A stretch of 64,000 nt of DNA from Bacteroidaceae bacterium (GCA_017407905.1 JAFQVS010000045.1:8940-72939); one strand, 5' to 3'; shown: positions 5,361 through 46,686, counted from the stretch's first letter. Translations and numbers: made by a program. Notes: generated by a model from the sequence alone, not told the origin.

Positions 5361-5378
5361 AGGTCTCCTCTTTTGATT

Positions 5379-6047: not shown

Positions 6048-6132
6048 TTTCCTTATCTCTTTTGGTTTAAAATGATATAAGAGGGAGGCCTCGAAAGCCA
6101 CCCTCTCATTGTTCTATACTGAATCTCTTTTG

Positions 6133-18914: not shown

Positions 18915-18943
18915 TATTTCGGCTCTTAATAAAACTTACTTTT

Positions 18944-21900: not shown

Positions 21901-22702
21901 TGGGGAATTGCAGCGGCTCGCCGTCTCCCTCATTGAGGAAATAACAGGCCTCATCGGAATATACATTCTGTGTATGTGTGAAGCGCCCCGAGGCATACTC
22001 CCAGCGCACCGTTCCGTTGGCAAAGAAGAGTACATAATCCTTCTCGCGCCACAGAGGAATCTCTTGCAGGTCGTCGGGAAGATTGTGCAGATTCTTCTCG
22101 GGCAGTATGCGGCCGCCGTAGCCGAAGAGACGCACGCGCGAGGGGTCGTTAAAGCCCATACGCCTGAGCTCGGCAGTGGTTATTTTGTGTACGCCGCTCT
22201 CCTTAACCGATATTCGCACCCAGCGCCCTGTGTCGAGCACCGAGGCATTTGTGTAGCGTTGCCGTGGCGAGGTGCGGCTGTCGAGGCGCGAGAGTGCCTT
22301 TTGGACGCTGAGCGTGCGCGAGACGACCAATTTAAACGAGTTTATGCGCATAAAGCGGCCGTCGGCACTGACGACGGGCACAAAGCTCACGTCGAGCTGT
22401 CCGCGCTTGGCCGAAACGCCCACCGACGCGCTGACGCGAGGATAAGCAGGCAGTGCCTCGGGCAGTGCGTCGAGACGGTAGCGGGCAATCTCCCCGGGGC
22501 TCATCGGCACAAATTCGGGATACTCGATGGTTGCCTCATAGTCGTAAATTGCATAGTCGTCGGGCAGCTCAATCATTGTCGAGTAGCGCGGCAGAAGCGT
22601 GTCGCGCGCCATCGTCTCCCAATCGACCTCGATAAACTGTGCCATCGCCCCCGAGGCGACGAGCAGCAGTGCAAAAGTTAATATTTTCCTAAGACTTTTC
22701 AT
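18944..22702 (-). CDS. porU: Type IX secretion system sortase PorU (C25/gingipain-like peptidase)
   Basis: 1252 aa. Signal peptide and a central C25-like region (YLLLFGDG..., ANYSGHGS..., WVTASCDIGPFD, supplying His and Cys). The C-terminal beta-sandwich ends ...AEKIIVLNNKK. Adjacent to porV. Confidence 0.78.
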   Translation of the reverse strand: MKSLRKILTFALLLVASGAMAQFIEVDWETMARDTLLPRYSTMIELPDDYAIYDYEATIEYPEFVPMSPGEIARYRLDALPEALPAYPRVSASVGVSAKRGQLDVSFVPVVSADGRFMRINSFKLVVSRTLSVQKALSRLDSRTSPRQRYTNASVLDTGRWVRISVKESGVHKITTAELRRMGFNDPSRVRLFGYGGRILPEKNLHNLPDDLQEIPLWREKDYVLFFANGTVRWEYASGRFTHTQNVYSDEACYFLNEGDGEPLQFPKQQMEATVGKVYDTYPDYALYEKEEKTLCTYGRRLVGEYDFSAGRTVSYRFPLEGVVEGQRANVDISFASNATTVSRVAVDVNGAQIGSLGVPQATSTDHGRFADISFVVPSGLTENTTIKLTHTTSDASLSGHLDYLRLSFTRRLALRGSDIEFRGDGTSGNATFKIANATADTHVWRVTDQASTVELEARLADGILTVVAPASYDEQLVAVNVKGSFPSITKAVEVPNQNLHALEGVDMIIIVPSNGAFLAEANRLAEAHKQHDNLSVAVVTAAQVYNEFSSGTPDATAYRRLMKMLYDRAADAGAAPKYLLLFGDGLTDNRLITYPRMSADNFLLTYQSDNSVSAVRSYVLEDYFALLDDGEGGNLLRDKVDISVGRIPVQTTADASGVVDKLIAYIENRNPGAWQNRLLLMGDDGDKTIPNQHMKDAEAIARLTSEANPAFMINRIYWDEYPMEVLSTGNSYPMATQAIYDRLDEGVLIANYSGHGSANLLSHEQTWKASDMAALSSPRVPFWVTASCDIGPFDMGDGSLAETAMLNPNGAAIGLFTTTRTVLQVYNAIINQKFMQLLLTPDAEGRYPSVGDAMRMAKCALISEGSDLSENKLQYVLIGDPALRLHIPRYKVVVDKFDGADATHEGEARAGGTVVVEGYVARPDGSPATDFCGVVQPTLFDCIETVSTRDNTGLGKFEYVAYPKRLFAGSDSVAGGRFKLTIPVPMDISYRGEKGMLNLFAVDTLGTSAQGCYDNFTVGGTAPSTSNDAKGPQIKMYLNTPEFMDGDEVNSAPCLFVELFDENGINTVGTGIGHDIMAIVDNDKFHTYNLNSAYVPAVGDYRSGTIEYPLSALGEGEHTLLLRAWDLFNNSSTDTLTFVVVPNLAPDFVDVRVAPNPVQYGQRATFVLTHNRPHSELDVTIEIFNLQGQMLWQCSERLTSVSTQCAIVWDVTASGGQPMPTGVYIYRARLSSEGSSEQTKAEKIIVLNNKK

Positions 22703-31065: not shown

Positions 31066-31100
31066 AATTGGCACAAAAGATAATTTCTTTTGTGCCAATT
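31066..31100. terminator. Hairpin terminator between the convergent FISUMP gene and CHAT-A
   Basis: Perfect 14-bp stem AATTGGCACAAAAG (31066-31079) / CTTTTGTGCCAATT (31087-31100), flanked by A/T runs on both sides. Confidence 0.75.
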
Positions 31101-31197: not shown

Positions 31198-33459
31198 TTA
31201 TTCTATTCCATCCAACAGGATAAATGCAGCCCAATATTGAGGAGAGGCCCATTTTGCGTAACTGCGCACACGGTTTTTAGCGATTTTAAGAGCCTCGTGC
31301 TTAGACTTTCCCGCCATCCAATGCTTGTAAAACTCGGTCATAAGCACCTGTGTGGCATCATCATCCACCTTCCAAAGGGACATCAGAATGGCATCGGCAC
31401 TTGCCATCTTAAAACCACGCTGGAGGCCGAACACGCCATCCGAGGATATATCTCCCCGGGCCGTTTCACACGCACTGAGGACAACAAGGTCGAGCCCCTG
31501 TAAATCCAGCGTAGAAATCTCTTGCGCCGTCAGGACACCATCCTCCAGCCCCTCGGGGATGGGCGCACCGTTATAAACATTATCGGCACCCGAGAAGAAC
31601 AGTCCGCTACGCAACAGCGGGTTATCTTTATCGCCACCCCTACTATCCTTATTGTGATAGAATCCGTGAGTAGCAATATGAATAATCTTCTTTTGCTGTC
31701 CGCTCAGGGCCTTGAACGACGCCTCTGTTCCCTCGTTGGCAATATATGCCTTAGCCGAGATATTGGCCTCGTGCGAGCTATTTATGATTGAGGTGATACT
31801 GTCTGCCTCGACTCTTGTTCCCTTAAGATAAGGTATTTTTACTATCGCCGCACGCTCGGCACGCGTGTTATCCTCGACAAAGACAATATCGCGCTTACGA
31901 ACAGCCGGATAGTTGTACATATCGGCCACCATATCACGCGTACTCATATCATACGTTAATCCACCATAAATGGCAGCATCCCGTCCATCCTTTAAGCTCC
32001 GTCCCGTAATCAATTCTCTGGTAGATGAGAGACGATACACATCAAAGACATCGGCTATACTGTGATACGATTCAATTTCTCCATTCTTCATCACCGGCTC
32101 GATAAATGGTAGATACTCTATGCCCGTAACCAACAGAGCACCGTCGGCCGAAAAATAGATGCGTCCCTTATCTTTGGTTGGGAAATATTTAACAATATCA
32201 TCCGACCAGATGGCATTGCTCAGTCTCCACAAGCCGTCCATATCCTCTTTGGCATACTTTTGAAAGGGATTTCCCGACAAATGGCTATCTAACCCCTTGT
32301 ACGTACTTACTGTATCGCGTTTACTCTTAGACCGGAGAAAGTCGGGCACTAAATCCTTGAACGAGAATTTCGGAGCATCTTGCAGCGATACGTAATTATT
32401 CAATTTCACAATCTTGGGCGACGACCAACGCTTTTTCAGCAGGATGGCACCATACTCATTGCTTGTCGTACGATAAAATTCTATGGCTAAATCATCGTTC
32501 GATAGCTGATTGCGAACATCCTTCCACGTAATTGACAGCTGTGGGATAGTATATTCCTGTCCCTGCTCGCGCAGAGCCCCGAGAATGACATAATCGAGCG
32601 AGTCGAGAGTACTTTGCGCTGCCCCCGCGAGTGTCAGCCTCTTTCTAATGGTTAAATTATCAATAGCCCTTTTGTTGCCACTCTCATTGACATAACTCTC
32701 GAAGCTGACTGTTGTGTTAAGCAGCAGACCTTTGGAGAGCAACAAAGCATTATAAGCCGCCGACGCAATAGAGGGCATTCTTCCATCTGAAGAATGTGCC
32801 AAATCAACAGTTTTATTGATATATTTTGCCGCCACATTCCAATAAATATTACGCTCCGACTCGCAGCTCGAACAAAATTCGTCTTTTATCAACTGAATAT
32901 AAGAGTTATACCCCTTATTATGATATTTACTCGATTTCTTATATTTCAACCGTTCGGCATACAATCGCGACAGCTCTAATAGAGCATTCAAATAGACCTC
33001 GCTTCCTTTACCAAAATAGGCCTCCTTCAGACGGCAAGATTTTTTTGAAGACTGCACCGCCATAAAATCGCGGCCCGAGTTATACTCAATCTTGGATTTT
33101 ATATCTAAATAAAAAATCTGGTTGATTGTATCTTTACCTTTGAAGCCCCCCTTCCCGATTTTCTCAAACAGGATATTACTCTTCTTTAGCAACTCCTTTC
33201 CCAGCTCATTATCGCCTGCATCAGCACACACCGCGGCACACCACATCAAGCAATCGGCATATTGAAGGCTCTGTGCAGAATATCGTTTTTTGTACAATTG
33301 CAATAACTCATTAAGTGCCGGAGCAATATCTTTTGTGTCCCTATACAGCCGCTCTTGAATCTCGTTTTTCAGAGACTGCACCCTTAAAGAATCATTTGTC
33401 GATGCCAATATATAAACACAGCACAGCAAAGAAAGCAAAAATATATTATATCGTTTCAT
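31198..33459 (-). CDS. Exported TPR + CHAT-domain (caspase-fold) protein, short paralog (CHAT-A)
   Basis: The likely ATG is at 33459 (MKRYNIFLLSLLCCVYILAST signal peptide); the ORF-track start at 33468 is a TTG. The C-terminal CHAT core has IHIATHGF (His) and VVLSACETARG (Cys), then GVFGLQRGF...SLWKVDD...YWAAFILLDGIE. Confidence 0.88.
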   Translation of the reverse strand: MKRYNIFLLSLLCCVYILASTNDSLRVQSLKNEIQERLYRDTKDIAPALNELLQLYKKRYSAQSLQYADCLMWCAAVCADAGDNELGKELLKKSNILFEKIGKGGFKGKDTINQIFYLDIKSKIEYNSGRDFMAVQSSKKSCRLKEAYFGKGSEVYLNALLELSRLYAERLKYKKSSKYHNKGYNSYIQLIKDEFCSSCESERNIYWNVAAKYINKTVDLAHSSDGRMPSIASAAYNALLLSKGLLLNTTVSFESYVNESGNKRAIDNLTIRKRLTLAGAAQSTLDSLDYVILGALREQGQEYTIPQLSITWKDVRNQLSNDDLAIEFYRTTSNEYGAILLKKRWSSPKIVKLNNYVSLQDAPKFSFKDLVPDFLRSKSKRDTVSTYKGLDSHLSGNPFQKYAKEDMDGLWRLSNAIWSDDIVKYFPTKDKGRIYFSADGALLVTGIEYLPFIEPVMKNGEIESYHSIADVFDVYRLSSTRELITGRSLKDGRDAAIYGGLTYDMSTRDMVADMYNYPAVRKRDIVFVEDNTRAERAAIVKIPYLKGTRVEADSITSIINSSHEANISAKAYIANEGTEASFKALSGQQKKIIHIATHGFYHNKDSRGGDKDNPLLRSGLFFSGADNVYNGAPIPEGLEDGVLTAQEISTLDLQGLDLVVLSACETARGDISSDGVFGLQRGFKMASADAILMSLWKVDDDATQVLMTEFYKHWMAGKSKHEALKIAKNRVRSYAKWASPQYWAAFILLDGIE

Positions 33460-33464
33460 ACTCT

Positions 33465-34007
33465 TCAAAATGTAGTTTTTATACCAAGCCCTATTCCACT
33501 AAAGGTGCGTTCGTTGCGACAACTGAAATGCGACACTCCCACTTTTATATTCTTGTTGACATCCAATAAATAGACGGTAGAAGCATCTATTGCGGCCGCC
33601 TTTTCTCTGAGCCTTTTTCCCCATCTGAAGAAGGAATATGGAATAGTCATAGTTAGAGCAACACCGCAAGGAATCGCAACCCACGTAGAAACATCCGTTC
33701 CTGTTACGACATATACGGTGGCTGCATATAGCCCCAGCGCAGTAATAACCCCAACCGCCTCGACCTCGGCAGCCCTCATTCTTAACATTCGCTTCTTGTT
33801 TTGCATTTCAAAGTCGTATGCTCTGTTCATAGAGTTTATATTCATATAATACTCGGCCGACAGCATCGGAAGCTCGGCTATACAACTATCCTGCATCGTC
33901 TCAATAGTTTCCGTGCCATTAGTTTGCGAGTACAAGGCCGAGCAAACGATTGATACTAATATAGTAATGAGCAATCTTTTTAGTTTCATAATCCTACAAA
34001 TTACCAT
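33465..34007 (-). CDS. Small exported membrane protein (signal peptide plus 2 predicted TM helices)
   Basis: 180 aa, with an alternative ATG at 33989. The signal is MKLKRLLITILVSIVCSALYSQ. Hydrophobic helices are VGVITALGLYAATVYVV and WVAIPCGVALTMTIPYSFF. The protein ends ...GIGLGIKTTF. Its start overlaps the stop of the upstream gene (ATGGTAA), and its stop lies 5 nt before the CHAT-A ATG. Confidence 0.6.
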   Translation of the reverse strand: MVICRIMKLKRLLITILVSIVCSALYSQTNGTETIETMQDSCIAELPMLSAEYYMNINSMNRAYDFEMQNKKRMLRMRAAEVEAVGVITALGLYAATVYVVTGTDVSTWVAIPCGVALTMTIPYSFFRWGKRLREKAAAIDASTVYLLDVNKNIKVGVSHFSCRNERTFSGIGLGIKTTF

Positions 34008-34789
34008 TTTATTGTTCGTGTTATTATCGACGTGTCAAAGAGTTTTCTTGTCGAGAAAATTGGGAACGAAATTTTTGCTTCGTAATAGCCTCTTTGGTCT
34101 TTTACATTATTTAAAGAGTGATAATAAGCAATCGCATTCCTATCGAGTTGATGCAAAATATAATATCCCGCTCGTAATTCAAGTTTTATAAATGAGAATT
34201 TTGCATTTAATCCATAATAAATAGAGGCTGCAAAATTGTTAAAGCACTCATCATTAAACCCTTGATAGCTAAAAGTCTCATCGTACTTAATACGCTTGTC
34301 GAGCAAAATCTCAGCCTTAGCACCTGCACAAAATACCAACCAAGAGAAATTTACATCGGTAGTAATCCAATGGGTGTGCATTCCGAGGGTGCGAAAAAGT
34401 CCCTTGTCGAACGCAAACCTCTCATATTTATATCCTAAATTGACGCCTAATCGAAGCTGGTCATATTGAGTACTATAAAATTCACTCCCTACGCCCACAT
34501 CGACAAAAGATGAGTATATGGTTGTCATATTATCTGGAATTGCAGTAAAATCATTATACTCGAATGTTCCCTTATATATACTCCCTAAGGTACAATTGAT
34601 ATATAAATCACAGCCTATTAGGTTGGCCGTGGATTTTCGGGGCAATATCTTGACGTTGTCAATATCATCACTAAGGATGTATTTAACATAGTCAGTTTGA
34701 GCCTCGGAAATATAAGGGATAGCACAGAGGCATCCTACAAACAGGAGTTTAATATTTCTCAAGATAAATGTATTTAATTGCTCGCACAT
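34001..34789 (-). CDS. Exported protein, beta-barrel-like outer membrane candidate
   Basis: 262 aa. Signal peptide ...LLFVGCLCAIPYISEAQ, alternating hydrophobic/aromatic strands and an aromatic C-terminus (..TRTIKW). It overlaps the upstream gene by 41 nt. Confidence 0.55.
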   Translation of the reverse strand: MCEQLNTFILRNIKLLFVGCLCAIPYISEAQTDYVKYILSDDIDNVKILPRKSTANLIGCDLYINCTLGSIYKGTFEYNDFTAIPDNMTTIYSSFVDVGVGSEFYSTQYDQLRLGVNLGYKYERFAFDKGLFRTLGMHTHWITTDVNFSWLVFCAGAKAEILLDKRIKYDETFSYQGFNDECFNNFAASIYYGLNAKFSFIKLELRAGYYILHQLDRNAIAYYHSLNNVKDQRGYYEAKISFPIFSTRKLFDTSIITRTIKW

Positions 34790-35462
34790 AATAACTCTTT
34801 TTCTTTAATCTACCATCTTTTCTATCATAAGAACCAACAAGGGGTGCAACTATTGCCATATTCGAGGGGTCGGCATTCTCGTTTACAACACCCTCCTGAT
34901 TATAATTGCAATAATCCTCGGCGCAGGTCCAATAAAAATTCTCCTCATTTAAGGGCACACCACCAATTTTCGATAATACTGCGTTCAGTTCATCTAAATC
35001 TGTATTGATAACTAAGAAATCCCATGCCTCTTCCCTTGTAGGCAGACGCCAAGAGCTACTCGAGGATGGCTTATCTGTCGGGTTCTTCTTGTTGCACCAA
35101 TTCATAGCTGGATAATTCTCAATTCCCCTGCTTTTCATCAAATGAAGCATAGCCGTACCAAAAGAATCATCACCATACACTCTCTTAGGGAACCTCAGAG
35201 TATCCTCAATTTGATATACAGTCTCACCCAAAGGCCCCCACGGCAAATAAGCCTCATCTGCCGACACTACTATAATACAACTGTTGTAACTATCATATTC
35301 ACAATGTACGACGACGCCCTTATTGCCATATTCATCCACGTAGGTGTCATACAATTGATACACCTTTTTTGTCTCGTCAAAAATTATTTCATCGGATGTA
35401 TAACCGCACCCCAATAGCAGTGGGATAATAATGCAGATTAAAAATTTTAAATAATTAGTCAT
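34749..35462 (-). CDS. Lipoprotein with DUF1566-like domain
   Basis: 237 aa. Lipobox IIPLLLGC. SWRLPTREEAWDFL ... FYWTCAED ... SYYVRAIKYI matches the DUF1566 pattern (WRLPT..E / YW[ST] / V-R-x-[IV]). Confidence 0.7.
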   Translation of the reverse strand: MTNYLKFLICIIIPLLLGCGYTSDEIIFDETKKVYQLYDTYVDEYGNKGVVVHCEYDSYNSCIIVVSADEAYLPWGPLGETVYQIEDTLRFPKRVYGDDSFGTAMLHLMKSRGIENYPAMNWCNKKNPTDKPSSSSSWRLPTREEAWDFLVINTDLDELNAVLSKIGGVPLNEENFYWTCAEDYCNYNQEGVVNENADPSNMAIVAPLVGSYDRKDGRLKKKSYYVRAIKYIYLEKY

Positions 35463-35468
35463 ATTGCG

Positions 35469-36332
35469 CTAATAAAAAATACAAGTATCCAATTCCAAAG
35501 CCGAAACATCAAATGTTGCCACAAAAGGGCGATGTTCCTCATTTTTTATAATATGTTTAACCGAATTGTTACCATCGGAATCTTCGGTTCGCATTCTAAT
35601 GGCTATTTCGTCGTCGGCATTGCACAAGGATATTGGAACGATGATAGAATCCCTGTGCGAGAGATAATAATATTGATACTCATATAATCCCGATTCAATC
35701 TTCTCAATATCCTTAAAACCAAATGCCTCGACACAGTCTATTGAAGCGTTCAGGCTTTCGGCATCGCCAAAATTGGTAAACACACAATAGCCATTATAGG
35801 TCATCGGCCTGAGTTTTACAGAAAAAATCTGATTCGACGGTAACGCGTGCAACGAGGCCGACAACAGCACATTATACTGCGGCTCTGCTTTTCTATCGAC
35901 CATATACAGATAGATATTATCGTAGCGGTTGGTACCCAGCTGACACCAAGCCTCTGAGAAATTCAGAAGCTCGCCCTTCTTTAATATATCGGCCATAAAG
36001 ACAAAATAATAAGTATTGTTATTATTCAAATGGCTGAAGGTTATTTGCGTCTCGCCTAAATGGGGCAAGAGGCGAGTTTGCGTATCCAACAGCTGCCCGC
36101 CATTATCGTAGCAGTAGCATACTGTTCGCAACGCATAGGCAGTGTCAATCTTGTTGCTGCATCCCATCCTAAATTCTCCATCATCGAATGAGAGGATATT
36201 CGAGAAATAGTCGCCCGAATCCAAAATAAATGTTACGCCCCTCTGCGACGTGTCGGCCCACTCGTCGAAATTCTCCTTACAGCTTGTCAGCAAAAAGAGT
36301 GAAATGATAAGAAGTACCCGTATGCTTTTCAT
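35469..36332 (-). CDS. Hypothetical lipoprotein
   Basis: 287 aa. Lipobox SLFLLTSC. I recognise no motifs. Its start overlaps the stop of the upstream gene by 4 nt (ATGA). Confidence 0.6.
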   Translation of the reverse strand: MKSIRVLLIISLFLLTSCKENFDEWADTSQRGVTFILDSGDYFSNILSFDDGEFRMGCSNKIDTAYALRTVCYCYDNGGQLLDTQTRLLPHLGETQITFSHLNNNNTYYFVFMADILKKGELLNFSEAWCQLGTNRYDNIYLYMVDRKAEPQYNVLLSASLHALPSNQIFSVKLRPMTYNGYCVFTNFGDAESLNASIDCVEAFGFKDIEKIESGLYEYQYYYLSHRDSIIVPISLCNADDEIAIRMRTEDSDGNNSVKHIIKNEEHRPFVATFDVSALELDTCIFY

Positions 36333-36976
36333 ATTTTAAATGGAATTTCATAAGTTAGTCCGACACCTATTCTACCCCTCTCGAAGGCCGATTTATACAA
36401 GCCGTAATAGTTGTACTCCTTTGTCTCGAACAGATATTTCTGATTTATTGCGGGGGCAAGGTCGTACTCGTAGTACAACGAGGCTCGCCACCTTTTTATT
36501 TTAAAGCCGATTTTTGCACCGACCGAGAAATAGTCGTCGGCAAGATTCGCGTCCGACGTTCTTGTATCCGACAATCGGCTATGATAGGCAGAGTTTATCG
36601 CCCAATGTGAGGCTATTTCTCCTGCAACGAAAAGCGAGAATGACTTTCCGCGTATCACATTCAGCCTCAACGATGCACACAGCAGAATTTCTTGAGTAGA
36701 TATATACTCGTCGCGCCCGCCGAAATAGGGGTTGCGAATATTATATTTGAGCCCAAAATCGGCATTTAATAAATTGCGCGACGAACCAATGCCGACAGCA
36801 ATTTTGGGCGAGAAACTGTAATTGTAATTTGCCGCCGCATCTACTCCAATATCAAAATGGTAATATTCAATTCTGCCGAACCGCTCTTTCTTAATTCTCC
36901 TATAATCGGGCTGTGCCCAAATAGAATTAAGCATTAAAAAACATAAAAAAGCTGTTATAATGACTTTTCTATTCAT
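36329..36976 (-). CDS. Exported small beta-barrel-like outer membrane protein
   Basis: 215 aa. Signal peptide VIITAFLCFLMLNSIWAQ. G/Y/F-rich alternating strands (FDIGVDAAANYNYSF, ADFGLKYNI, SVGAKIGFKI, ASLYYEYDL, IGVGLTYEIPFKI) resemble small porin-family barrels. Confidence 0.6.
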   Translation of the reverse strand: MNRKVIITAFLCFLMLNSIWAQPDYRRIKKERFGRIEYYHFDIGVDAAANYNYSFSPKIAVGIGSSRNLLNADFGLKYNIRNPYFGGRDEYISTQEILLCASLRLNVIRGKSFSLFVAGEIASHWAINSAYHSRLSDTRTSDANLADDYFSVGAKIGFKIKRWRASLYYEYDLAPAINQKYLFETKEYNYYGLYKSAFERGRIGVGLTYEIPFKI

Positions 36977-37045
36977 AATCTATTCGTTCTTTTCATTAGG
37001 GGGGGTGAAGCCTCAATATTGAGACATTGGGATTTTTGGGGCCGA

Positions 37046-37318
37046 TTAAGAGCCCCAGATATTATCCCAACCGTTGCCGCCCTTACGTTTTTTTATGAAC
37101 GAAGAGCCGGCGTCGAGCTCAATGGCAATAGTAACATTGGATTTTTCAAAAACTTTGGCAGCATCGGCCTCGGGCACCTCATAGGGATAACTCTTACCCG
37201 TCATATCAATTGTCAGGAAAGGCTCCTGCGCCCAAACAGCAGGGCTCAAAAGAATAAGGAGGAGTAACAACATTCTCTTTAAAGAAAAGATTTTTTTGGT
37301 CATATTCTTAAATTTCAT
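37046..37318 (-). CDS. Small secreted protein (about 60 aa mature)
   Basis: 90 aa with a strong signal peptide KRMLLLLLILLSPAVWAQ. It lies 69 nt upstream of the coupled gene run on the same strand. Confidence 0.5.
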   Translation of the reverse strand: MKFKNMTKKIFSLKRMLLLLLILLSPAVWAQEPFLTIDMTGKSYPYEVPEADAAKVFEKSNVTIAIELDAGSSFIKKRKGGNGWDNIWGS

Positions 37319-37556
37319 TTTTCCTTTTTTGTGTAAAAATAATTAACTCGGGCTGCTCCAATATTCCGAGAATAAATAGAGGCACAAAGCTGCGCTCGGA
37401 CATTTCAGAGCAGATGCGAGTATGCGAACCCACAATAAATTCGCATACTCGTGCAAATATATTATTTTTTTTAAGAATTTATTTAAATCTGTTAAGAATT
37501 AAACTTATAAAATATTTTCTCGAAATAAAGGTCGAGACTTTTAAGTTTTTATAATC

Positions 37557-40500
37557 CTAATCTATTCCATCCAGCAAGATAAATGCCGCCCAATAACGAG
37601 GATGGGCGAAACGCCCATTTTCGCACGTTCTCAGATAATTACGTGCATTTACCAGCGCTACACGCTTCGTCTGTTTATTCGTTATCAGATTACGATAAAA
37701 TTCCGTCATCAGAATTCGAGTAGCTTGGTCGTTCACCTTCCACAACGACATTATCATTGACTGAATGCCAGCCTTTTTAAATCCACGCTGAAGGCCGAAC
37801 ACACCTTCGCCTGTAATCTCGCCTAATCCCGTCTCACAAGCCGAAAGCACCACCATATTTACATTCGTAAGGTCGAGGTGCGAAATTTCTCGCGCCGTGA
37901 GGATTCCATCATCGACATTATCGGGAATAGTCTCGCCATAAAACCAAGCTGAAGCACCCGTCATAAATAGTCCCGAACGACTCAACGATTGGTCCTCCTT
38001 ACTATCATCCTGTCTGATTAAGGTAACAGATGTTGAATCTTTAATCTCGTCCTGTGTCTGATAAAAACCGTGCGTAGCCACGTGGAGCATTGTTACATCA
38101 CTGCCACTTGTGCGTTTAAACTCATCCTCCGTTGCATTGATTGTTGTATATGTCTCGACACTCAAATTATTCTCGCTGAAGATTTCTGCAATCTGCTCCA
38201 CCTCTTTATTTGTACCCGGCAAAGGCTCTAAATAGAATGCAGCCCCGCGCTCAAATGCAGAGACATCACGCATTGCATACACATTCTCCTCGCCCTCGTG
38301 CTGATTCTTCGATGCAATCTCGGCCCATACATCATCCTTTACATAATACTCTATTCCACCATAGAGTGCAGCCTTAGTTACCAAAGGCGCAGCCCTATTC
38401 AATTGATTCTTATGCTTCACAATCTCCATTGTGTTTGAAACTCTGTAAAGATTGTACTTCTCGCACATAAGCGTATTACTGCCACCCCCTTCTGCAAGCA
38501 TATTCTCCATTGCAACCTGATACAACATACCGGTTGGAGAGAAATAGATGCTTTTTACACCGTCTAACAAATATTCAATTTCGCCATTATTAACAATATA
38601 ATAAGGCCAAATATCGTGAGTATATTTTAGATATAACGAATCGCTACTCTCTTTGATAACATCATCAATTCTATACATATTTACGAGCAAAGGGGCGTCA
38701 TAATTTTTCTTTAGAATCAAAGCATAATACCAATCGCCTTTATTTATGTATTCAATTGCCATTTCATCATCGTCTAAGGCATTCTGTACATCCCTCCAGC
38801 CGACCTCCAATGATTTTGTATAATCGTCGAAAGCCTTTGACGAGTACCACAATTCTGTCATAATCTTATCGGCCTCCATTTTCAATTGTTGCAACTCGGT
38901 TGGTGGCAAGGTTGTATCATCGAGTTGCCGCTTTATGCGCAGATAATCTTCGTACTGTTTTTGCACGGTTCTGTTACCCGACTCTTTAAGCACTTTGACC
39001 AGCTCTTGCTCGGAGCGCAACATATACCCCTTACTGAACAGCGCAAAATCATAGGCAAGCTCTCTTATTGTGTCCGAGCTATTCGGCCCGTAACCCAATG
39101 CGTTTATTATATCGGAAGATAGGGCCCCGATTCTATCCTCCAGATTCTTGTCCGAGAAAAGACGTTGACGCTGCATTTTACGTATTTCGTTCCACGATGC
39201 AACCAAATAATCGTATTTCTCTTCATTGGTCTTTTCCTCTTTCGAGTAATGATAAGCCAAAGAGACCTTAGTCTCTAAATATTTCATTTCGTCCTCGGAA
39301 ATATGTTCGATAGAATATCTATAACCAATTAAGTCATATATCAATTCACTCAGATAGACAAAAGCAGAATAATAATACTCATCATCGTTGTTTTGTAATA
39401 CGACTTTCTTTATCTGTTGTCGCAAACGGTCGGCATCTACCACAAGTTTGTAATCTTGCTTCTCATAGGCAAGAGCACATAACATATTCATTGCATCGTA
39501 ACTCTCTTGATACCTATGCAGCTCGGGGTTCTCGGACAATAACTGATATATAATTTTAAAATCATCTAACAAATACAAACGATTGCAACTGAGATGGATA
39601 GAATGATACGATATTAAACATTTGGCATACAAAACAGCCGTATATATCTCTTTTTTCTTTTTACTATCTTTTAAAAGACTTAAGAAGTAGTCCAAACGAT
39701 TAAAAGAGGAGGTAAGTTCCTTATTATAAACAGATTTTAATGTATAATTATCTAATAAATTATCAATTACACATAATGTAGCTACAATAGGCAGTTTCAA
39801 CGCATCATTGCTATCTACATACCTTAGAACATCTTTCTCGTGCTGTTCGTAGGTAATACTGTCTGTGTGCAGGCGTATTACAGAAAGATATTTAGCCCAA
39901 TAAACAACATCCCTGACATTCTCTTTTATTATAGAATCCTTCCAACACTTCATCTTTTCCATAAATGCCTCCTTTAAGCCCAAAGAATCGGCGCATAGCC
40001 CCATATTGATTGCCATACAGTGTTTGTCGTCGGTAATTATATTGTAAAATATAAAAACAGGAATAGAATCAAAAAATTCCTCATACCTATAAAATGCATC
40101 CAGAAAATTACGGTCGCGAAGCACCTGCCAAAGGCTCGGCGCATTGTATTTAGTGTAATATTTACTCTCTTTTGGCTTTGATTTATTATTCTTCCACAGC
40201 TCGAATTGCTTGTCATATTCGGCGAGGGCCTTCTTGTAAGCCGAATCCCTTTTCAATGAGTCCATATACGTAGTTGTCGCATAACGTTCCACATCCCATA
40301 CTACACGGTGATTAGATGCATCCATTTCAAATCTTACGACATCCTCTAATTCCGAGTACTTCTGATATTGGGGCGACTGCTCACCAAATTTTTCTTTTAC
40401 CCGGTTGCAATATTTATTCATAACACTATCGGCCATCAACTCATCTTTAGTTTCTTTCATTGCAACAAGGGCAAACTTTTTCAGGTTATCATAGAAATAA

Positions 40501-42125
40501 GGCGTTCCCAAACTATCCAAATGCTCCAATAATATCAATTTGGATTGAAGTAAATTCTGTTTAATCATCGACAAGGAGTATCTTACGGTATCGTAAGCAC
40601 TTACAGAATACTTGCTGTCTCTGAGTTTCATTTCTACTATTGATAAACTATTGTCAATGTGGCTTTGCCCCTTGGCAACCTCTTGTGCCGCATACTTTCT
40701 ATCCAATTTTGTATTCAGAATGTTCAATGCTGCGCCGCTTGTTTTTCGCGCTTTTACATAATAATCGGCAATCAGATAGACATAGGAACAGCATAGCAAA
40801 GGCACGTACAAATTACTGTTTTCAAACTTTATAGCATCTTCATCAGCTATTTTCAATGCTCTTTCATAATCATTCGAGTTAATATGAGCCACTGATAGAG
40901 AGACAGAAATAATGCTATACAAGTCATCAACTATGCTACCTGCATTTGCTAATTTTCGTCTTATTTCATATACTTCATCTATTAAATCATTATCTATTTT
41001 CCCGTTCATTGAGCTAATCATCAACAATAAGCTCGATGAGCCCGATAAAACAATTTGTCCTTCACTTGTTTTGACATCAGCCTTACGGACTATTTTTTTT
41101 AACAACTTTTTAGTTTTATCTACTTTATTTTGTTTAAAATAAACAATTGATTTTTGAAGTAGAGCGAGCAGATGCGGCTCGCAATATTTTCCACCATACA
41201 ACACAGATAATTCTTCGGCCGATGTAATATATTTTAACGCTAAAACATCATTTCCCATTGAATGATTTACCTCGGAGGCAGACAGCAGCAGTTGTATATA
41301 TCGCTCGCTGGCCGTGCCATAAAGTTTACTCGCTATCGACAGCATCTTTTCGACAGCCTCGTTGTATTTATCCATCATACCAACCTGAGCAAATACTTTG
41401 GACAAATTATCCCACACATTTACTGCTAAATCACTTTCGGCCTCGCCAACAGCATCTAAATAGAGTAAAAAATCATTGAATCCCTCTAATACGTCATAAA
41501 GTTCGCCTTTCATAGAGTAAACATTTATGGCTTGTTCCAAAAGAAATCTCTTGAATCGGGCATTTTTTCCATACAAATTATCGCAATCGTCCAAAACACG
41601 CTTCACATCGGCTTTTGCTTTTTGAAAATCGCCAGAATATGCCCTTAACTCGGCTATATACATACGCGTATTGATAGTCCAACGCGACTCTCGCCCTAAT
41701 GCAGCATACTCAATTTGGTACATCTCCTGCAATTTCTGTATTATAAAATTTGTATCATCCCCCTTATATGCCAATACAACTTTTGAGATAGAATCACTCT
41801 TCAGCATAAGCCTTCGGTCAATCGGCGGTAAATCGTACCCGCGCTCATCGTATAATGCTGCATTCTTTAAATCGCCCTTTTTGAAATAACAAGAGGCAAT
41901 CCAATTCCTCAAATATGTTACCCTGCTATCGAGTGAATCCAACTCCCCGGTTTCGATAGCTTTGCTCTGCTCGAAGACAAGAATCGCCTCATCATATTCT
42001 TTGGCATTGTAAAGAGCTACACCCCGTGCATATAACGAATCGGAATAGGCCAGACGAGACACATTCTGTCCGAAACTACTTTGCAACAGCAAGGTAAAAA
42101 TTATAAAAGCAAATATTCTCTGCAT
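37557..42125 (-). CDS. Exported giant TPR + CHAT-domain protein (CHAT-B)
   Basis: 1522 aa. Signal peptide MQRIFAFIIFTLLLQSSFGQ and a long all-helical TPR-like body. The C-terminal CHAT core has LHVATHGF (His) and VVLSACETGLG (Cys), then ...YWAAFILLDGID. Confidence 0.9.
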   Translation of the reverse strand: MQRIFAFIIFTLLLQSSFGQNVSRLAYSDSLYARGVALYNAKEYDEAILVFEQSKAIETGELDSLDSRVTYLRNWIASCYFKKGDLKNAALYDERGYDLPPIDRRLMLKSDSISKVVLAYKGDDTNFIIQKLQEMYQIEYAALGRESRWTINTRMYIAELRAYSGDFQKAKADVKRVLDDCDNLYGKNARFKRFLLEQAINVYSMKGELYDVLEGFNDFLLYLDAVGEAESDLAVNVWDNLSKVFAQVGMMDKYNEAVEKMLSIASKLYGTASERYIQLLLSASEVNHSMGNDVLALKYITSAEELSVLYGGKYCEPHLLALLQKSIVYFKQNKVDKTKKLLKKIVRKADVKTSEGQIVLSGSSSLLLMISSMNGKIDNDLIDEVYEIRRKLANAGSIVDDLYSIISVSLSVAHINSNDYERALKIADEDAIKFENSNLYVPLLCCSYVYLIADYYVKARKTSGAALNILNTKLDRKYAAQEVAKGQSHIDNSLSIVEMKLRDSKYSVSAYDTVRYSLSMIKQNLLQSKLILLEHLDSLGTPYFYDNLKKFALVAMKETKDELMADSVMNKYCNRVKEKFGEQSPQYQKYSELEDVVRFEMDASNHRVVWDVERYATTTYMDSLKRDSAYKKALAEYDKQFELWKNNKSKPKESKYYTKYNAPSLWQVLRDRNFLDAFYRYEEFFDSIPVFIFYNIITDDKHCMAINMGLCADSLGLKEAFMEKMKCWKDSIIKENVRDVVYWAKYLSVIRLHTDSITYEQHEKDVLRYVDSNDALKLPIVATLCVIDNLLDNYTLKSVYNKELTSSFNRLDYFLSLLKDSKKKKEIYTAVLYAKCLISYHSIHLSCNRLYLLDDFKIIYQLLSENPELHRYQESYDAMNMLCALAYEKQDYKLVVDADRLRQQIKKVVLQNNDDEYYYSAFVYLSELIYDLIGYRYSIEHISEDEMKYLETKVSLAYHYSKEEKTNEEKYDYLVASWNEIRKMQRQRLFSDKNLEDRIGALSSDIINALGYGPNSSDTIRELAYDFALFSKGYMLRSEQELVKVLKESGNRTVQKQYEDYLRIKRQLDDTTLPPTELQQLKMEADKIMTELWYSSKAFDDYTKSLEVGWRDVQNALDDDEMAIEYINKGDWYYALILKKNYDAPLLVNMYRIDDVIKESSDSLYLKYTHDIWPYYIVNNGEIEYLLDGVKSIYFSPTGMLYQVAMENMLAEGGGSNTLMCEKYNLYRVSNTMEIVKHKNQLNRAAPLVTKAALYGGIEYYVKDDVWAEIASKNQHEGEENVYAMRDVSAFERGAAFYLEPLPGTNKEVEQIAEIFSENNLSVETYTTINATEDEFKRTSGSDVTMLHVATHGFYQTQDEIKDSTSVTLIRQDDSKEDQSLSRSGLFMTGASAWFYGETIPDNVDDGILTAREISHLDLTNVNMVVLSACETGLGEITGEGVFGLQRGFKKAGIQSMIMSLWKVNDQATRILMTEFYRNLITNKQTKRVALVNARNYLRTCENGRFAHPRYWAAFILLDGID

Positions 42126-42196: not shown

Positions 42197-45100
42197 TTAT
42201 TCTATTCCATCCAACAGGATAAATGCAGCCCAATATTTGGGGTCGTCCCACCCCTTCTCCTTATGCGAGCGCACCAACTGCTTGGCAAGCTCAAGCGCCT
42301 CGCGTTTACTCTTGCCTTCGACCACCCAAAAGCGGTAAAATTCGGTCATAAGCATACAGGTAGCCTCGTCATCTACTTTCCACAGCGACATTAGGATGCT
42401 ATTGGCACCGGCCTTCTTCAGGCCGCGCTGAAGGCCAAAAACACCCTCGCTTGTTACATCGCCCAACCCTGTTTCGCAGGCCGAGAGTGTAATAAGCTCT
42501 GTTTGCGTTAGGTCGAGGGCCGCAAGCTCGCGTGCCGTCAGGATTCCATCATCGACATTATCGGGAATTTCCATTCCCCGCATATATGACACGGCGCCCG
42601 CCATCAACAATCCGCTGCGGCTCAATGCCTGCATCTCTTCGGTATCATATTCACTCGACTTTTTGACACCATTCCACGCCTGAAAAAAGCCGTGTGTTGC
42701 AATGTGCACAATAGCCGTGGCGAACCGCTCAGTTGCTTTACCGCCTCCTCGGTTGCAGAGACGCCCGTAAACAGTTCGGCACCCACCTTTTCGCCTTGCA
42801 GTAATTTATCAATCTCGCCGACCTCAATTTCCGTTCCGGGAAGATAGATGCTTGCACCGCGCTCGAAAGCACGTTGCAACGAGACTATATCACGATTGGC
42901 GGTACCATTTTCACCGGCAGCCGCCCGCAACGACATTTCTTGCCACTGCTCGCTGCCGAGCTCATACTCCACCCCTCCGAACAACGCCGCTGTTAATTCG
43001 CGCTGCGCCTTTTTCGGACGAATAATCTCCCGCGTATTCGACAAGCGATACATATTGTAGGCATCGCACATTGCGCTTCCGTCGGGCCGCGGCAACGACT
43101 CCATAGGCAACTGATGCAGCGCCATTGATGGAGAAAAATAGATATTCTTCACCCCAGCAAGCACCTCGTGCAATGGTTCCCATATAAGCTCGTACTGTCG
43201 TTGTCGGTTGTTTGCGGCAAGCGACAACTCCTCCTCGGGGCACAAGGCTTTAAACTGAGGTTCGAAGCCCTTTTTCAATATAAGCGCAATGATGTACGAC
43301 ACGCCATCGTCGGGCGATGCACCTTGCACAAATTCTATTGCAATTTCTCCATCCCTCAATGCACTGCGCACATCCTGCCACGAGAGTGTAAGCTGCCGTG
43401 TATAATCCCCAAAATTATGCGAAGAAGTTTCAAGAATATCATATATTCCAATTTGTTTTTCACCAAGTGAATCACGTTCGGCAGCTGACAAATTGCCGGC
43501 CATCTTTTTACGAATACTCCTTAATTCATTGCACAAAGCAATAAGAGACTCATTCCCCGACTCAAGCATAGTTCGCTCCAATTCGGCCTGCGAGCGCAGC
43601 AACAGCCCTTTGATAAAAAGAGCCGCATCGTAGGCAAAGCCACAAAAAACAGGGGTTTTATATTTTAGTACGTAACCCGTTGCTTTATTCTGCAACTGCC
43701 AAGATTTAGTATGAAAAAGATATTCGCCATAGAAAGCCGACATATATTTACCTCTAATAAATCCACGTAAATCCTCCACATCACATCGCATTGTTTCAAC
43801 CAAATGCTGTTCAAATAAATCGGTATTATTTTGTAGTTGATGACAAAGCGCCAAAAGCTCGGAAACACGTTTTATCAAATCATTTTCTTGAATATCATCT
43901 CTAAAACTGAAAGAAGAAAAATAATTAGACCTATAAACATTATCACACACTAATGGGTTATTCTGTAAGTTCTTAGGAAGGCCCATAATGCGCTCACCAA
44001 TACGAATAGCCTCATCGCAACGGCCGGCATCATATTCTATACGCATTTGCCAATACAACAAGGCTCTGTAAGTCCTTGTGGCTGTATAATTTCGAGCCTC
44101 GTGCACCCGTATGGCCTCCGAAATTAAATCGGGAATATCCGAGGGAAGAATATGGTTAATATCATCGAATATATTCCAAGACATTAGGCTTGCAGTGGCA
44201 AAAATTATAAAATTATCGTAACTTAGATTCCCCGTGCCGCACTTCTGCTTCACATCGTTTATCATCTTTTTTGTTGTAGCAACCATAAAACCAATATACT
44301 CCTCATCGCGTGCTTTTGCATAAAAAGATGATTTATTTCCAATGGCCGTCAAAAGAATTATACCCTTTAACTCGGGATTTTCGTTCCATAGAGAATCGTC
44401 GCGAGCAATTACGTTATTCACCAGATTCAGCAGCTCCTGTGCATCAGTAAACCCTATTTCTACCTTTCTCAACGTATTACAAGCCATATTAAGGTAATCC
44501 TTATGGTGCCTGTTGGCAAGCAATAGAGAGTCGAACGTGTGCGCAATATCACTCTGGCTGCAACCACTTTTTTTCATAGAATACGCTAATCGAAAAGATA
44601 AATTAGAGCCATCTGTATCTCCCAATGTAACATATTCCGGTATCCAAGATACGCGCCCAAATAACCGTTTGTAAATCTCTATTGCCTTACCATACTCACC
44701 AACTTCTTCATCATAATAAATATCGGCAATTTTATTTAAACAATCATTTGAAGCCTCGTCTAACGGAATAGAATCGAGCGCCCCCAACTCATACAAATAT
44801 TTTTGTATAACATACGAGTACTTATTTATTTCATTGCCGTAAAGCACTCTTTCGACACGTAGTATCTCGCGCAAGATGCCTTTCAATTCATCATCTAACT
44901 CATCAAATGTTAAAACCTTATATGGTGCTTTTAAGAATAAAGCACTATCGAATAGTTTGCAAAGAACATCTTCATAATTTTCTGTTGCAATATTCTCATT
45001 GTCCTGTTTCATACGTTCGCTGTAATTGCGACACACATCATACAAACGAATATAATCGTGTGTACCATCGCAACCATAATAGAAGTTAAAGAACGCACTC

Positions 45101-46686
45101 CAACACTCATCGCTATCGGCTCCAAACAGACGCTCGGCTGTGTAAAAATTCATCTCTTTGACTATATTCAGAGCAAAATTATTTTGATATATAAGACTGT
45201 CGGGACGAATACCCTCGGGTAGGAAACCAAGATTATTCGTTAGGTCCAATTTCTTATTGACACTAAAAAATCTCGAAATAATATTGTTTGTGATGGCCGC
45301 CTCTGATAGAGATAAATTCGATATATTATTCTTGTACTCATCGCAAACTACACGAAGCCATTCGGTTGCCTCGCCGAAACGATGCGCTCCCATATAAGTG
45401 GCAAATGTCAACATTTTGTATGTTAAGCCCTTACCTTTTTTGAATCTTATTTCGTCGGACATTCTGTGCAGATGCTCGCAGGAGTAGGCTGCGCCTTGAT
45501 GTATGAACAGATAAAAGAGCGTATATACATTTACCTTATCGCTCAGAAGAGCCTCTACCCTCTTCCACATTTTTGTTATTTTCTTGGGGCTGTTATCCGG
45601 GAGTGTGGATTTTGCAGCCAAAGCAATAATTGTTAATGTAGTATCATCGGGGGTGCTCAATGCCGCACGATTGCTCAGCACCTCGTCAAACTGCAAGCGG
45701 GCCTCATCGTTGCGGTTCATATCCCTTAACAACAGGCCACAAGTCAAGCGCTGATAGTCGGCCTGCCAAGAATCCTCCAATTTCACATAGAGCGAAATGA
45801 GACTGTTTTTCAATTCCAATGCCTCTTGGAAAAGGCCCAAATTATAGTAATATCTGCTCACATCGTACAAGGCATTGGCATAGGCGTATTTATCGAGAGT
45901 ATATAACTCTTCTGTTACGCCGACGAGTTGCCGCCAAGCATTTTGCAATTGCTGCTTGTCTTGTGTTAAGTAATACAATCCACACAGACTGCGCAAGGCA
46001 TTATAGTGCATCCACATAGGCTTTTCAGGAAGCCTTGCAAGCTGCTGTTTACGAGCATCAATAGCCTCTTTATAATAGGTTTCTATGGCCATTCGTTGAG
46101 CATAAAAATCCAACACACGACAATAATATAGTCCGTGCGTGGCGCCCTTCATCTCGAAAATTGTTTTTACCCTTACCAATAAATCTCGGAAATCTGATTT
46201 TCCAAGATAGTCTTTTTCGGCCCACATTTCAAGCACCTTTAGCAACAGGAGGGCATAGGCGTCTGTCTCGCCGAAACGCTCGTAATACAATTCGGCACAT
46301 TTTTGATATACTTTTGCAGCCTCGCCGGGGTTGGATGCCTCTAACGCAAGAGCCTCTTGACGCAAAGAGTCTATTTCAATTGTCAGACGGCGGTCGGTGG
46401 GGGTAATATCGAATCCCCACGGGTTTATCTCGGCAGCGCGGGCTGTGTCTCCCAAATGAAAATAACAGCCGGCCAGCCACTCGCGGCCGTACCCCCAGCG
46501 AACGTTGGTGGAATCAATCTCGGCCCTGTCCAATTTTTGCACCGCCTCGAACAGAGGTATCGCCTCGCCATATTTTGCCTCATTATATAGCTCTACGCCT
46601 TTGGCAAACAACTCATCGCTGTACCTACTTTGGGAAAAGCCAACTATTGGAAAAAATAACACAAGCAGTAACAAACGGTATTTCAT
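42197..46686 (-). pseudogene. Exported giant TPR + CHAT-domain protein (CHAT-C), interrupted by a -1 frameshift near 42720
   Basis: Two ORFs (42622..46746 and 42197..42709) together reconstitute a paralog of CHAT-B. The likely start is ATG 46686 (MKYRLLLLVLFFPIVGFSQS). The long frame decays into ..KQLSGSPRLLCTLQHTAFF.., while the +2 frame reads ATAIVHIATHGFFQAWNG, continuing into LSACETGLG ... YWAAFILLDGIE. Confidence 0.85.

Follow-up and report, generated by a model that had tools for sequence, protein, structure and literature searches.

Within a 64,000-nucleotide (nt) stretch of DNA from Bacteroidaceae bacterium (GCA_017407905.1 JAFQVS010000045.1:8940-72939; hereafter, the window), seven minus-strand genes, g1 to g7, end in a gene predicted to encode an exported cysteine protease with a CHAT domain (g7, here CHAT-A). 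An earlier note on this DNA, made from the sequence alone, had proposed one co-inherited, exported and undescribed module ending in an active-looking CHAT protein; this central claim holds for g2 to g7, and in one relative g6 is fused to CHAT-A. We tentatively read g2 to g7 as the conserved chassis of an envelope sensing-and-proteolysis system of the conflict type, a reading to which we would give somewhat less than an even chance.

Direct reading of the sequence confirmed all seven open reading frames (ORFs) from 37318 to 31198, where they had been placed. With the flanking signals, the features are as follows.

37319-37470, minus strand: promoter-proximal region and structured 5' leader with a -7-type motif and a perfect hairpin; putative promoter
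37046-37318, minus strand: g1, small secreted protein of 85-90 amino acids (aa), a lineage-specific orphan outside the conserved core
36329-36976, minus strand: g2, 215-aa exported protein, probable small outer-membrane beta-barrel
35469-36332, minus strand: g3, 287-aa lipoprotein with a predicted two-domain type V pilin fold
34749-35462, minus strand: g4, 237-aa lipoprotein with a C-terminal DUF1566/Lcl_C-like domain
34001-34789, minus strand: g5, 262-aa exported beta-rich protein, probable second outer-membrane barrel
33465-33989 (34007 as first read), minus strand: g6, 174-aa predicted membrane tether of the protease
31198-33459, minus strand: g7 (CHAT-A), 753-aa exported protein in which a helical-repeat region precedes the CHAT cysteine protease domain
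31066-31100, either strand: bidirectional terminator-like hairpin with a 15-bp stem and a consensus match, between the convergent g7 and FN3-DUF1566 genes

We tested linkage from the protease side by scanning a CHAT-A alignment against species-representative genomes and JGI metagenomes, and we mapped a hidden Markov model (HMM) of every family on 69 loci (given L numbers below). Neighborhood mining found the small genes co-conserved with CHAT-A orthologs, as had been supposed, and absent near other CHAT paralogs. All CHAT genes that score at least ~590 bits on the CHAT-A profile have g4 and g5 directly upstream in the same order, together with g6 or a g6 segment fused to CHAT-A, and most have g2 and g3 as well. 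Around ~50 CHAT paralogs scoring <410 bits, from genomes labeled Prevotella, Muribaculum, Parabacteroides distasonis, Chitinophagaceae and others, none of g2 to g6 was found within 10 kb. The same order and strand recur in ~15 independent loci, in which the small proteins are ~22-60% identical; this recurrence is far beyond chance. The contigs of diverged g3 relatives (36-55% identical) all encode proteins of ~215, 287, 237, 255, 175 and 750 aa, with CHAT last. Among the five lineages first compared, CHAT-A is 50-79% identical, versus 33-60% for the small proteins.

Units shortened to g4-g5-g6-CHAT or g5-g6-CHAT were found in tandem on one contig (L009/L012, which holds three tandem modules) and singly in L068 and L069, so that the tightest core comprises g5-g6-CHAT, in most cases joined by g4. 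The unit had been described as having seven genes; g2 to g7 are conserved, but g1 does not belong to the conserved unit. The g3 family is very rare: a word-seeded search found 8 clusters among 5.8 billion entries, an exhaustive profile search found 72 clusters at 50% identity among 1.84 billion representatives, and a scan of JGI metagenomes with an 8-sequence g3 alignment found no relative. The hosts are sporadic, comprising metagenome-assembled genomes (MAGs) labeled Prevotella, Rikenellaceae, Bacteroidaceae and unclassified Bacteroidales, all of them gut or rumen Bacteroidales; no cultured isolate carrying the module was seen among the species-representative genomes and metagenomes scanned. 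The closest named relative is the NCBI MAG "Bacteroidaceae bacterium" GCA_017531425.1. Between strains, five of the six core genes have a ratio of nonsynonymous to synonymous polymorphism (pN/pS) <1 (0.11-0.58), the exception being g4. An apparent decay of the seven ORFs in strain L071 (an NCBI MAG) proved to be a gene-calling artifact, and all seven are intact there. In strain L072, CHAT-A (4157-6418) has a nonsense codon at position 201, and the other operon genes are intact.

The spacings originally reported also stand for the most part, namely the 69-nt gap after g1, the ATGA overlap of the g2 stop with the g3 start, the 6-nt gap between g3 and g4, the 41-nt overlap of g4 with g5 and the 5-nt gap before g7, but not the 7-nt overlap of g5 with g6. 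The most likely start of g6 is the ATG at 33989 (174 aa), because all orthologs align from that Met and independent gene calls use it; the g5-g6 junction is therefore an 11-nt gap. Likewise, g1 probably starts at the ATG at 37303 (85 aa), since the ATG at 37318 reads ATA in 98.7%-identical strains. Upstream of g1 lie a terminator-like hairpin (37537-37518) that follows the CHAT-B gene, a Bacteroidota-type -7 motif (TAtaTTTG) and, directly after this promoter-like motif, a perfect hairpin (arms 37417-37428 and 37440-37451; 16 bp in the RNA fold) that occurs once in the window. The RNA fold of the 5' leader is unusually stable (-47.7 kcal/mol, z = -4.69); the leader matched no Rfam family and no known cis-regulatory RNA. 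Because of the flanking terminator-like hairpins, the promoter-like motif and the structured leader, g1 to g7 look like a single transcription unit. Phase variation through an invertible promoter was considered and rejected; the repeats are merely AT-rich and 74-77% complementary.

The claim that all seven products are exported is borne out by signal peptides in g1, g2, g5, g6 and g7 and by lipoboxes in g3 (LLTSC) and g4 (LLLGC). In g1, g2, g5 and g6, as in the neighboring CHAT-B, the signal peptide is followed by Gln at +1 (in g1, after AVWA), as in the Bacteroidota Q-rule (PMC5837995). CHAT-A ends directly with the CHAT domain, so there is no room for the usual C-terminal domain of type IX secretion system (T9SS) cargo. 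The host encodes type IX secretion proteins elsewhere in the window (17712-22702, minus strand), namely PorV (PF19572) and a 1252-aa Peptidase_C25 protein that is probably PorU; these show that it possesses a T9SS.

The CHAT domain of g7 is strong (PF12770, E 1.8e-47), and the His/Cys dyad noted previously is intact, with His598 and Cys664 invariant in five orthologs; the protease thus looks active. The label TPR-CHAT holds for its CHAT part, whereas its TPR_12 match is weak and stays below threshold (E 0.004). No other part of the module is as conserved as CHAT-A (pN/pS 0.11 between strains), and a PDB sequence search with it found no relative at E <= 0.01.

Where g6 is a separate gene, it always lies directly upstream of CHAT-A. 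Its product starts with a signal peptide and a helical segment, continues with a hydrophobic hairpin of two helices and closes with a C-terminal beta region of ~50 aa that ends in GIGxKxxF, the final Phe being invariant. The hydrophobic stretches fall at ~78-96 and 103-125 in the alignment; in a hydropathy scan, only the first was flagged for the window protein, and both were flagged (70-88 and 97-115) for the fusion found in L013. In that locus, residues 2-120 of an 866-aa CHAT-A match positions 2-126 of the g6 HMM (E 2.7e-16); the in-frame fusion retains the g6 signal peptide, helical segment and hairpin, and the C-terminal 50 residues of g6 are missing. A short g6 motif, and nothing more of g6, also occurs at the CHAT-A N-terminus in L011. 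As judged from its sequence, g6 is the membrane tether of the protease, and the hairpin topology, with the signal peptide cleaved, implies a predicted periplasmic location for the protease domain. The previous description of g6 as an exported protein with two transmembrane helices fits the hairpin and signal peptide, but its role is now narrowed to that of a protease tether. PDB searches with g6 returned chance-level matches only.

The AlphaFold2 model of g3, built from a 59-sequence alignment, reached a predicted local distance difference test score (pLDDT) of 95.4 and a predicted template modeling (TM) score of 0.87. In a Foldseek search of the PDB, the top 20 matches all belonged to the type V pilin family with probability 1.00; the best were the DUF1812 protein 3gf8 (E 9e-12, TM 0.52), BT2657 (4qdg), BDI_3522 (3r4r) and the Porphyromonas gingivalis anchor Mfa2 (5nfi, TM 0.51), followed by Mfa3 and Mfa4; 5nf4 and 5dhm were also among the 20. 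An earlier model from 8 sequences (pLDDT 58.7, Foldseek TM ~0.25) was only a lead until the 59-sequence model. Type V pilins consist of two transthyretin-like beta-sandwich domains (PMC13655056). They are made as lipoproteins with a lipobox Cys and polymerize through strand exchange that a protease triggers. On the strength of the model, we are confident that g3 folds like a type V pilin and comes nearest to anchors of the Mfa2/DUF1812 class. By sequence, g3 matched none of the Pfam pilin families, and an attempt to establish pilin membership through intermediate sequences failed, with 0 of 19 distant g3 relatives matching; a PDB profile search with g3 also found nothing. One 2460-aa match in the g3 search is a cadherin-like repeat protein, probably a spurious partial match.

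The lipid-bearing Cys18 of g3 is invariant across the 59 family members and is followed by C-x-[DE]-[ND]-F-D-E (Cys included). Validated lipoprotein export signals include SDDFE and SDDDD (PMC5080379); the g3 motif resembles such Bacteroidota surface-export signals and is consistent with surface exposure. There are 13 residues between the lipid Cys and the first strand (30-38), a spacing that therefore leaves no removable anchor strand before Arg31. This common Arg precedes the first strand and falls short of 90% conservation in the 59 sequences, and the beta1-beta2 loop (residues 39-46) has no conserved Arg or Lys in the same alignment. Stalk and tip pilins have a conserved Arg or Lys cleavage site in this loop, following an N-terminal anchor strand, and anchor pilins are without it. 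Lacking a loop cleavage site, g3 fits only the anchor class among type V pilins, and the predicted structure lacks the hallmarks of a polymerizing stalk pilin.

The earlier note had labeled g4 a DUF1566 lipoprotein. The match is below threshold in the window protein (E 0.0096), but Lcl_C/DUF1566 recurs in 8 of 11 g4 orthologs, each time below threshold (best E 5.3e-6), and the C-terminal domain probably has a C-type-lectin-like fold. In PDB sequence searches, g4 matched only 4EPS (residues 425-478 of 510), and that marginally (E 0.099). A paper on a Bacteroides diversity-generating retroelement (DGR) lists 4EPS among type V pilin structures and describes variable proteins that are homologous to tip pilins and bear C-terminal C-type-lectin folds. 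No DGR reverse transcriptase was present among the recurrent gene families near module loci.

We compared the window with strain L070, which is 98.7% identical (g4 at 8528-9241). In g4, 13 nonsynonymous and 2 synonymous changes had accumulated (pN/pS 1.65, against 0.11 for g7), whereas the other six genes together had 28 nonsynonymous and 29 synonymous changes (Fisher p = 0.0095 for the g4 excess). The g4 changes fall in five patches (residues 60-61, 93-94, 146-149, 173-175 and 210-216), a pattern that may reflect diversifying selection or short-patch recombination.

Scans of g1 to g6 against Pfam, NCBIfam and PADLOC gave nothing above threshold, g6 and g3 included. The g2 protein has a C-terminal motif, G-x-x-Y-x-I-P-F, and sub-threshold matches to OMP_b-brl, DUF5777, DUF2490, OMP_b-brl_2 and DUF6588; g5 orthologs have sub-threshold matches to OMP_b-brl_2 and DUF481. 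It is plausible that both are small outer-membrane barrels. PDB sequence and profile searches with g2 and g5 found no match, no POTRA or Omp85 domain was matched in either, and a paralogous relationship between the two was not detectable (hhalign probability 1.2%). The g2 gene is present in 12 of the 14 CHAT-A contigs examined (it is missing from L068 and L069). The g5 gene adjoins every CHAT-A ortholog, including those of the shortened modules in L009, L012, L068 and L069, and is part of the minimal g4-g5-g6-CHAT unit. No g1 homolog was found in 65 related loci, and only same-lineage clusters were found among 5.8 billion entries. Over 85 codons from the ATG at 37303, g1 has no amino-acid change between the window and L070, and it has one in strain L073.

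In seven relatives (L006, L009/L012, L010, L011, L016, L066 and L067), the operon opens with a gene, 9-20 nt from the next, for a protein of ~430 aa with an N-terminal TIR domain (TIR_2, 7.8e-13), a single transmembrane helix near residue 190 and a C-terminal FGE-sulfatase (FGS) domain (1.3e-14). Because this head protein has one transmembrane helix and no signal peptide, the TIR domain is predicted to be cytoplasmic and the lectin-fold FGE-sulfatase domain periplasmic. FGS domains have a C-type-lectin fold, have been proposed as invader sensors and are often paired with TIR or caspase effectors (PMC8195603; PMC10907252). After TIR-FGS come family C (secreted, ~219 aa), usually lipoprotein B (~433 aa; present in nine loci) and then g2 to g7; three loci open instead with family A (secreted, ~426 aa, 63-72% identical) followed by B. 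Variable heads (TIR-FGS with C, A with B, or g1) are thus set on a constant chassis. The window copy has the chassis but is without the TIR-FGS, B, C or A heads of its relatives, and tblastn found no remnants of A, B or C in the window. PDB searches with A and B found nothing, and family A also has no Pfam match.

Families A and C also adjoin CHAT paralogs outside the clade (L004, L005, L023 and L045). The highly conserved family A, ~400-430 aa, was observed at L004 6764-8044, L005 210-1523, L007 1606-2877, L013 12222-13418 (there downstream of CHAT-A), L023 8731-9945, L045 6246-7646 and L069 21211-22019; its distribution suggests a general partner of putative Bacteroidales CHAT proteases, or perhaps one of their substrates. 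Family C forms two-gene units with a separate TPR-CHAT gene of ~775 aa (L004 1188-4177, L005 8668-11755 and L045 7643-10643), and the pair has the appearance of a minimal module of its own with an exported CHAT protein, separate from the module of six genes. In L009 (5614-7428), two ORFs of 106 and 495 aa, with N-termini that look HipB-like and HipA-like, respectively, by eye only, lie directly upstream of the variant TIR-transmembrane protein that heads a shortened g5-g6-CHAT module.

We propose that g3 and g4 would stand on the cell surface as a ligand-binding unit and that g2 and g5, as small outer-membrane barrels, would retain them or link them through the outer membrane. The g6-tethered CHAT protease would be activated when a ligand binds or the envelope is damaged, and it would cleave a co-encoded exported protein. 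In full systems, cleavage would switch on the TIR domain, leading to NAD+ breakdown, growth arrest or abortive infection. The output of the window copy would differ, since TIR-FGS, C and B are missing there and only the orphan g1 is present; this copy may cleave or shed its own lipoproteins or g6, or it may act through an effector whose gene lies elsewhere. Strict linkage, the L013 fusion, the TIR-FGS heads, the g4 variation, the tandem modules, the low-GC island and the sporadic spread all speak for this reading, and among the hypotheses offered by the earlier note, sensing and proteolysis gains most, from the TIR-transmembrane-lectin heads, the clustered g4 changes and the tandem paralogy. 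A bolder form of the proposal, which we consider somewhat unlikely, is a trans-envelope immune-like receptor in which a diversifying, pilin-anchored lectin antenna would signal through the small outer-membrane proteins to the periplasmic CHAT protease tethered at the inner membrane, whose cleavage activity would then turn on the cytoplasmic TIR domain across that membrane.

Several points weigh against the conflict reading. The window copy has no TIR head and no other recognizable effector, and PADLOC returned two chance-level matches only (E 0.004-0.006). Described CHAT/TIR/FGS conflict systems are intracellular and usually governed by a STAND or MoxR-vWA nucleoside triphosphatase (NTPase); no such NTPase and no effector-associated domain was found in the operon, its flanks, A, B, C or TIR-FGS. 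The description of g2 and g5 as beta-barrel-like comes from scattered sub-threshold matches to families that differ from one ortholog to the next, and the g4 signal comes from 15 substitutions in a single strain pair. Finally, the g3 fold and the lectin-type lipoproteins are just as compatible with a role in adhesion or in a pilus.

That role would make the module a derivative of a type V pilus or surface adhesin with a dedicated maturation protease, in which CHAT-A plays the part of an Arg-gingipain and cleaves a precursor for assembly or release; g3, g4 and, in relatives, B would be surface lipoproteins, and g2 and g5 would aid export or anchoring. We regard this, the main rival, as possible but rather doubtful; it accounts well for g3 and g4. 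The confident g3 fold, with all top 20 PDB matches in the family, speaks for it and for the lipoprotein maturation suggested previously by analogy with gingipains, as do the size of g3 as a lipoprotein, its motif near SDDFE/SDDDD (PMC5080379), the marginal 4EPS match of g4 together with the lectin folds at the C-termini of tip-pilin homologs, and the FN3-DUF1566 lipoprotein that adjoins the operon. Type V pilins, moreover, need cleavage at a conserved Arg; Bacteroides fragilis BfrT is cleaved at R43 according to the Bacteroides paper that lists 4EPS, the available part of which names no protease. The pilus and maturation proposals lose ground, however, in that Pfam scans detected no FimA, Mfa1 or fimbrillin stalk pilin among g1 to g7, the flanking genes and families A, B and C. 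In g3, the beta1-beta2 loop is without a conserved Arg or Lys, no removable anchor strand precedes R31 and, distant relatives included, there is no Pfam Mfa2/FimA membership. The protease is on an inner-membrane-type hairpin, whereas pilin-cleaving gingipains are secreted; the cytoplasmic TIR domain that heads seven related operons does not belong in pilus assembly; and shortened g4-g5-g6-CHAT modules lack g3.

Another explanation, effector processing and delivery, would cast the heads (A, C and g1) as pro-toxins or cargo that CHAT-A cleaves in the periplasm and the barrels release. Heads do vary on a constant chassis, secreted family A also adjoins CHAT paralogs outside the clade (L023 and L045), family C pairs with separate 775-aa TPR-CHAT genes, and CHAT genes have been noted in a variable region of a B. 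fragilis type VI secretion locus (PMC11854122). We nonetheless judge delivery improbable: no domain of a toxin, an immunity protein or a pore former is recognizable in A, C or g1, the barrels, at 215 and 262 aa, seem small for exporting proteins and have no detected POTRA or Omp85 domain, the commonest head is an inner-membrane TIR protein rather than a secreted one, and g1 is an orphan without relatives. The earlier note's suggestion of a surface-delivered protease with its own barrel is disfavored by the inner-membrane-type hairpin tether. A chance neighborhood, with unrelated envelope genes beside one of many CHAT genes, might be entertained because Bacteroidota CHAT paralogs are many and often in tandem and most of the small proteins have no recognizable family. 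It is highly improbable given the recurrence of order and strand in ~15 loci among proteins ~22-60% identical, linkage exclusive to the CHAT-A clade, the g6-CHAT-A fusion in L013, start and stop codons that overlap or nearly abut, and pN/pS <1 in five of six core genes.

The earlier note knew of no characterized system with this composition, and none emerged from Pfam, NCBIfam, PADLOC, PDB sequence searches or the literature; the idea that the module has no known relatives nevertheless needs revision. One half of a refuting condition named in the note is seen: g3 maps to the type V pilin by fold, and g4 weakly to a type V pilin structure. CHAT is not an unrelated neighbor of these genes, though, and the core claim of the note survives in sharper form. 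Our literature searches turned up no paper that ties CHAT to type V pili, Mfa2 or fimbrillin; for CHAT with DUF1566, the one paper found was unrelated.

Like type V pili (Fim/Mfa), the module includes a two-domain transthyretin-like lipoprotein of anchor size (g3), a co-encoded lectin-type lipoprotein and a clan-CD cysteine protease, and both occur in Bacteroidales. Unlike them, it has no stalk pilin and no conserved cleavage Arg in the g3 beta1-beta2 loop, g3 lies outside the Mfa2/FimA families by sequence, the protease is an operon-encoded, hairpin-tethered CHAT protein, and there are two extra barrel-like proteins and, in relatives, a TIR protein. Gingipains, by comparison, are clan-CD enzymes of family C25, secreted through the T9SS and encoded away from the pilin operon. 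With the caspase/CHAT-TIR-FGS conflict systems (Kaur et al., eLife 2021, and a 2020 study by the same authors; PMC8195603), the module shares a CHAT protein with an intact dyad, a TIR and FGS protein in the operon of seven relatives, lectin-fold proteins that are likely ligand binders (one of them changing fast), and paralogous expansion, variable accessory genes and sporadic distribution. It differs in that all parts but the TIR domain are exported, in showing no sign of a STAND or MoxR-vWA NTPase, an effector-associated domain or a DGR reverse transcriptase, and in its pilin-fold lipoprotein and outer-membrane-type proteins; the TIR and FGS neighborhood, moreover, belongs to the seven related loci, whereas the window copy is without TIR-FGS and the window has only DUF1566-like lipoproteins and an unlinked TIR-WG protein.

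Other comparisons are more distant. In the type III-E CRISPR (clustered regularly interspaced short palindromic repeats) Craspase (gRAMP/Cas7-11 with Csx29), CHAT is likewise preceded by a helical-repeat (TPR-like) region; here, however, no cas genes, CRISPR array or tandem repeats lie nearby (no CRISPR or tandem arrays in 26-48 kb of the window), the neighbors are envelope proteins, and CHAT-A has a signal peptide and no detectable match to PDB chains, Csx29 included. Unlike two-partner-secretion-like CHAT systems, the module has no match to an Omp85/ShlB-type transporter with POTRA domains in g2 or g5. Bacterial gasdermins also have a caspase-fold protease encoded beside a candidate membrane-active partner, but no gasdermin domain was detected in any gene here, and bacterial gasdermin systems are cytoplasmic. 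The Pseudomonas LapD/LapG-LapA system offers a working analogy, in that an inner-membrane-held periplasmic cysteine protease controls a surface protein (PMC4359373). The two have no homologous components, and there is no cyclic di-GMP (c-di-GMP) domain here. LapG is from another family of proteases, LapD acts as a c-di-GMP receptor, and LapA is retained via an outer-membrane component. We rate the component domains as known; in combination, they appear to represent caspase-fold conflict systems that have been transferred to the envelope and joined with components of type V pili.

The operon is part of a low-GC block (0.38-0.42 versus ~0.52) that spans positions ~31 to 47 kb, has argH and tRNA-Leu on one side and hut genes on the other, and also carries two further CHAT genes. 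The neighboring features are as follows.

29579/29684-31042, plus strand: accessory lipoprotein with FN3-like repeats and a C-terminal DUF1566-like region, convergent with the operon
37557-42125, minus strand: CHAT-B, 1522-aa exported TPR-CHAT paralog directly upstream of the operon
42197-46746, minus strand: CHAT-C, third TPR-CHAT paralog, with a 1-nt frameshift at ~42700

CHAT-B (PF12770, E 8.4e-51) is ~33% identical to CHAT-A over the C-terminal half, and it shares the low-GC island but not the operon. A 1-nt frameshift (~42700), immediately ahead of the catalytic His, breaks CHAT-C into ORFs of 1374 and 170 aa; an independent assembly that spans the site (L001, 100% identical) shares it, whereas strain L070, which is 98.7% identical, has an unbroken gene (1496 aa). 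In L066-L069, too, CHAT-A is flanked by CHAT arrays. More broadly, tandem arrays of 2-4 large CHAT genes (~900-1500 aa) are common across Bacteroidota, including Chitinophagaceae, and were observed in L017, L019, L022, L030 (Parabacteroides distasonis An897), L032, L039, L041, L046-L048 and L066-L069; we know of no characterization of these arrays in Bacteroidota.

The FN3-DUF1566 lipoprotein has sub-threshold matches to Pur_ac_phosph_N and Lcl_C, and a 49%-identical ortholog adjoins the module in L004. Its called length varies from 444 to 509 aa (L070 12947-14476, L071 12947-14302 and L073 6900-8234), a variation to which gene calling or a contig end may contribute. At 14399-16306 (minus strand), unlinked and ~15 kb from the operon, lies a gene for a 635-aa TIR_2 protein with an acidic low-complexity linker, a transmembrane helix (346-364) and seven WG beta repeats; its layout, with TIR inside and the binding domain outside, is like that of the TIR-FGS heads, and by analogy it could be a trans-encoded effector for the module. 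The sole Omp85 protein of the window is BamA, ~24 kb away. ARAGORN called a tRNA-Glu(CTC) at 52550-52638 (minus strand) inside a 411-aa plus-strand ORF (52336-53571), so one of these two calls is spurious.

To our knowledge, prokaryotic CHAT and caspase-like proteases have been characterized only as parts of cytoplasmic defense systems, and the CHAT-A clade is predicted to be exported, membrane-tethered and locked to surface-type proteins. A fold or role can now be assigned, on predicted structure or sequence, to three of its partner families (g3, g4 and g6). The system is tractable, with six genes, clear catalytic residues and natural variants that carry a TIR head, an A head, no head or the shortened g4-g6-CHAT layout. 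We know of no Arg-cleaving pilin protease outside Porphyromonas, and if the pilus maturation reading is true, CHAT-A would be the first operon-encoded protease for a protein of type V pilin fold. If the defense or sensing reading is true, caspase- and TIR-type immunity would reach the envelope, the first site of contact for phages, predators and competitors, and a trans-envelope receptor of this kind would be a bacterial counterpart of signaling from cell-surface receptors to caspase and TIR proteins, made from type V pilus parts.

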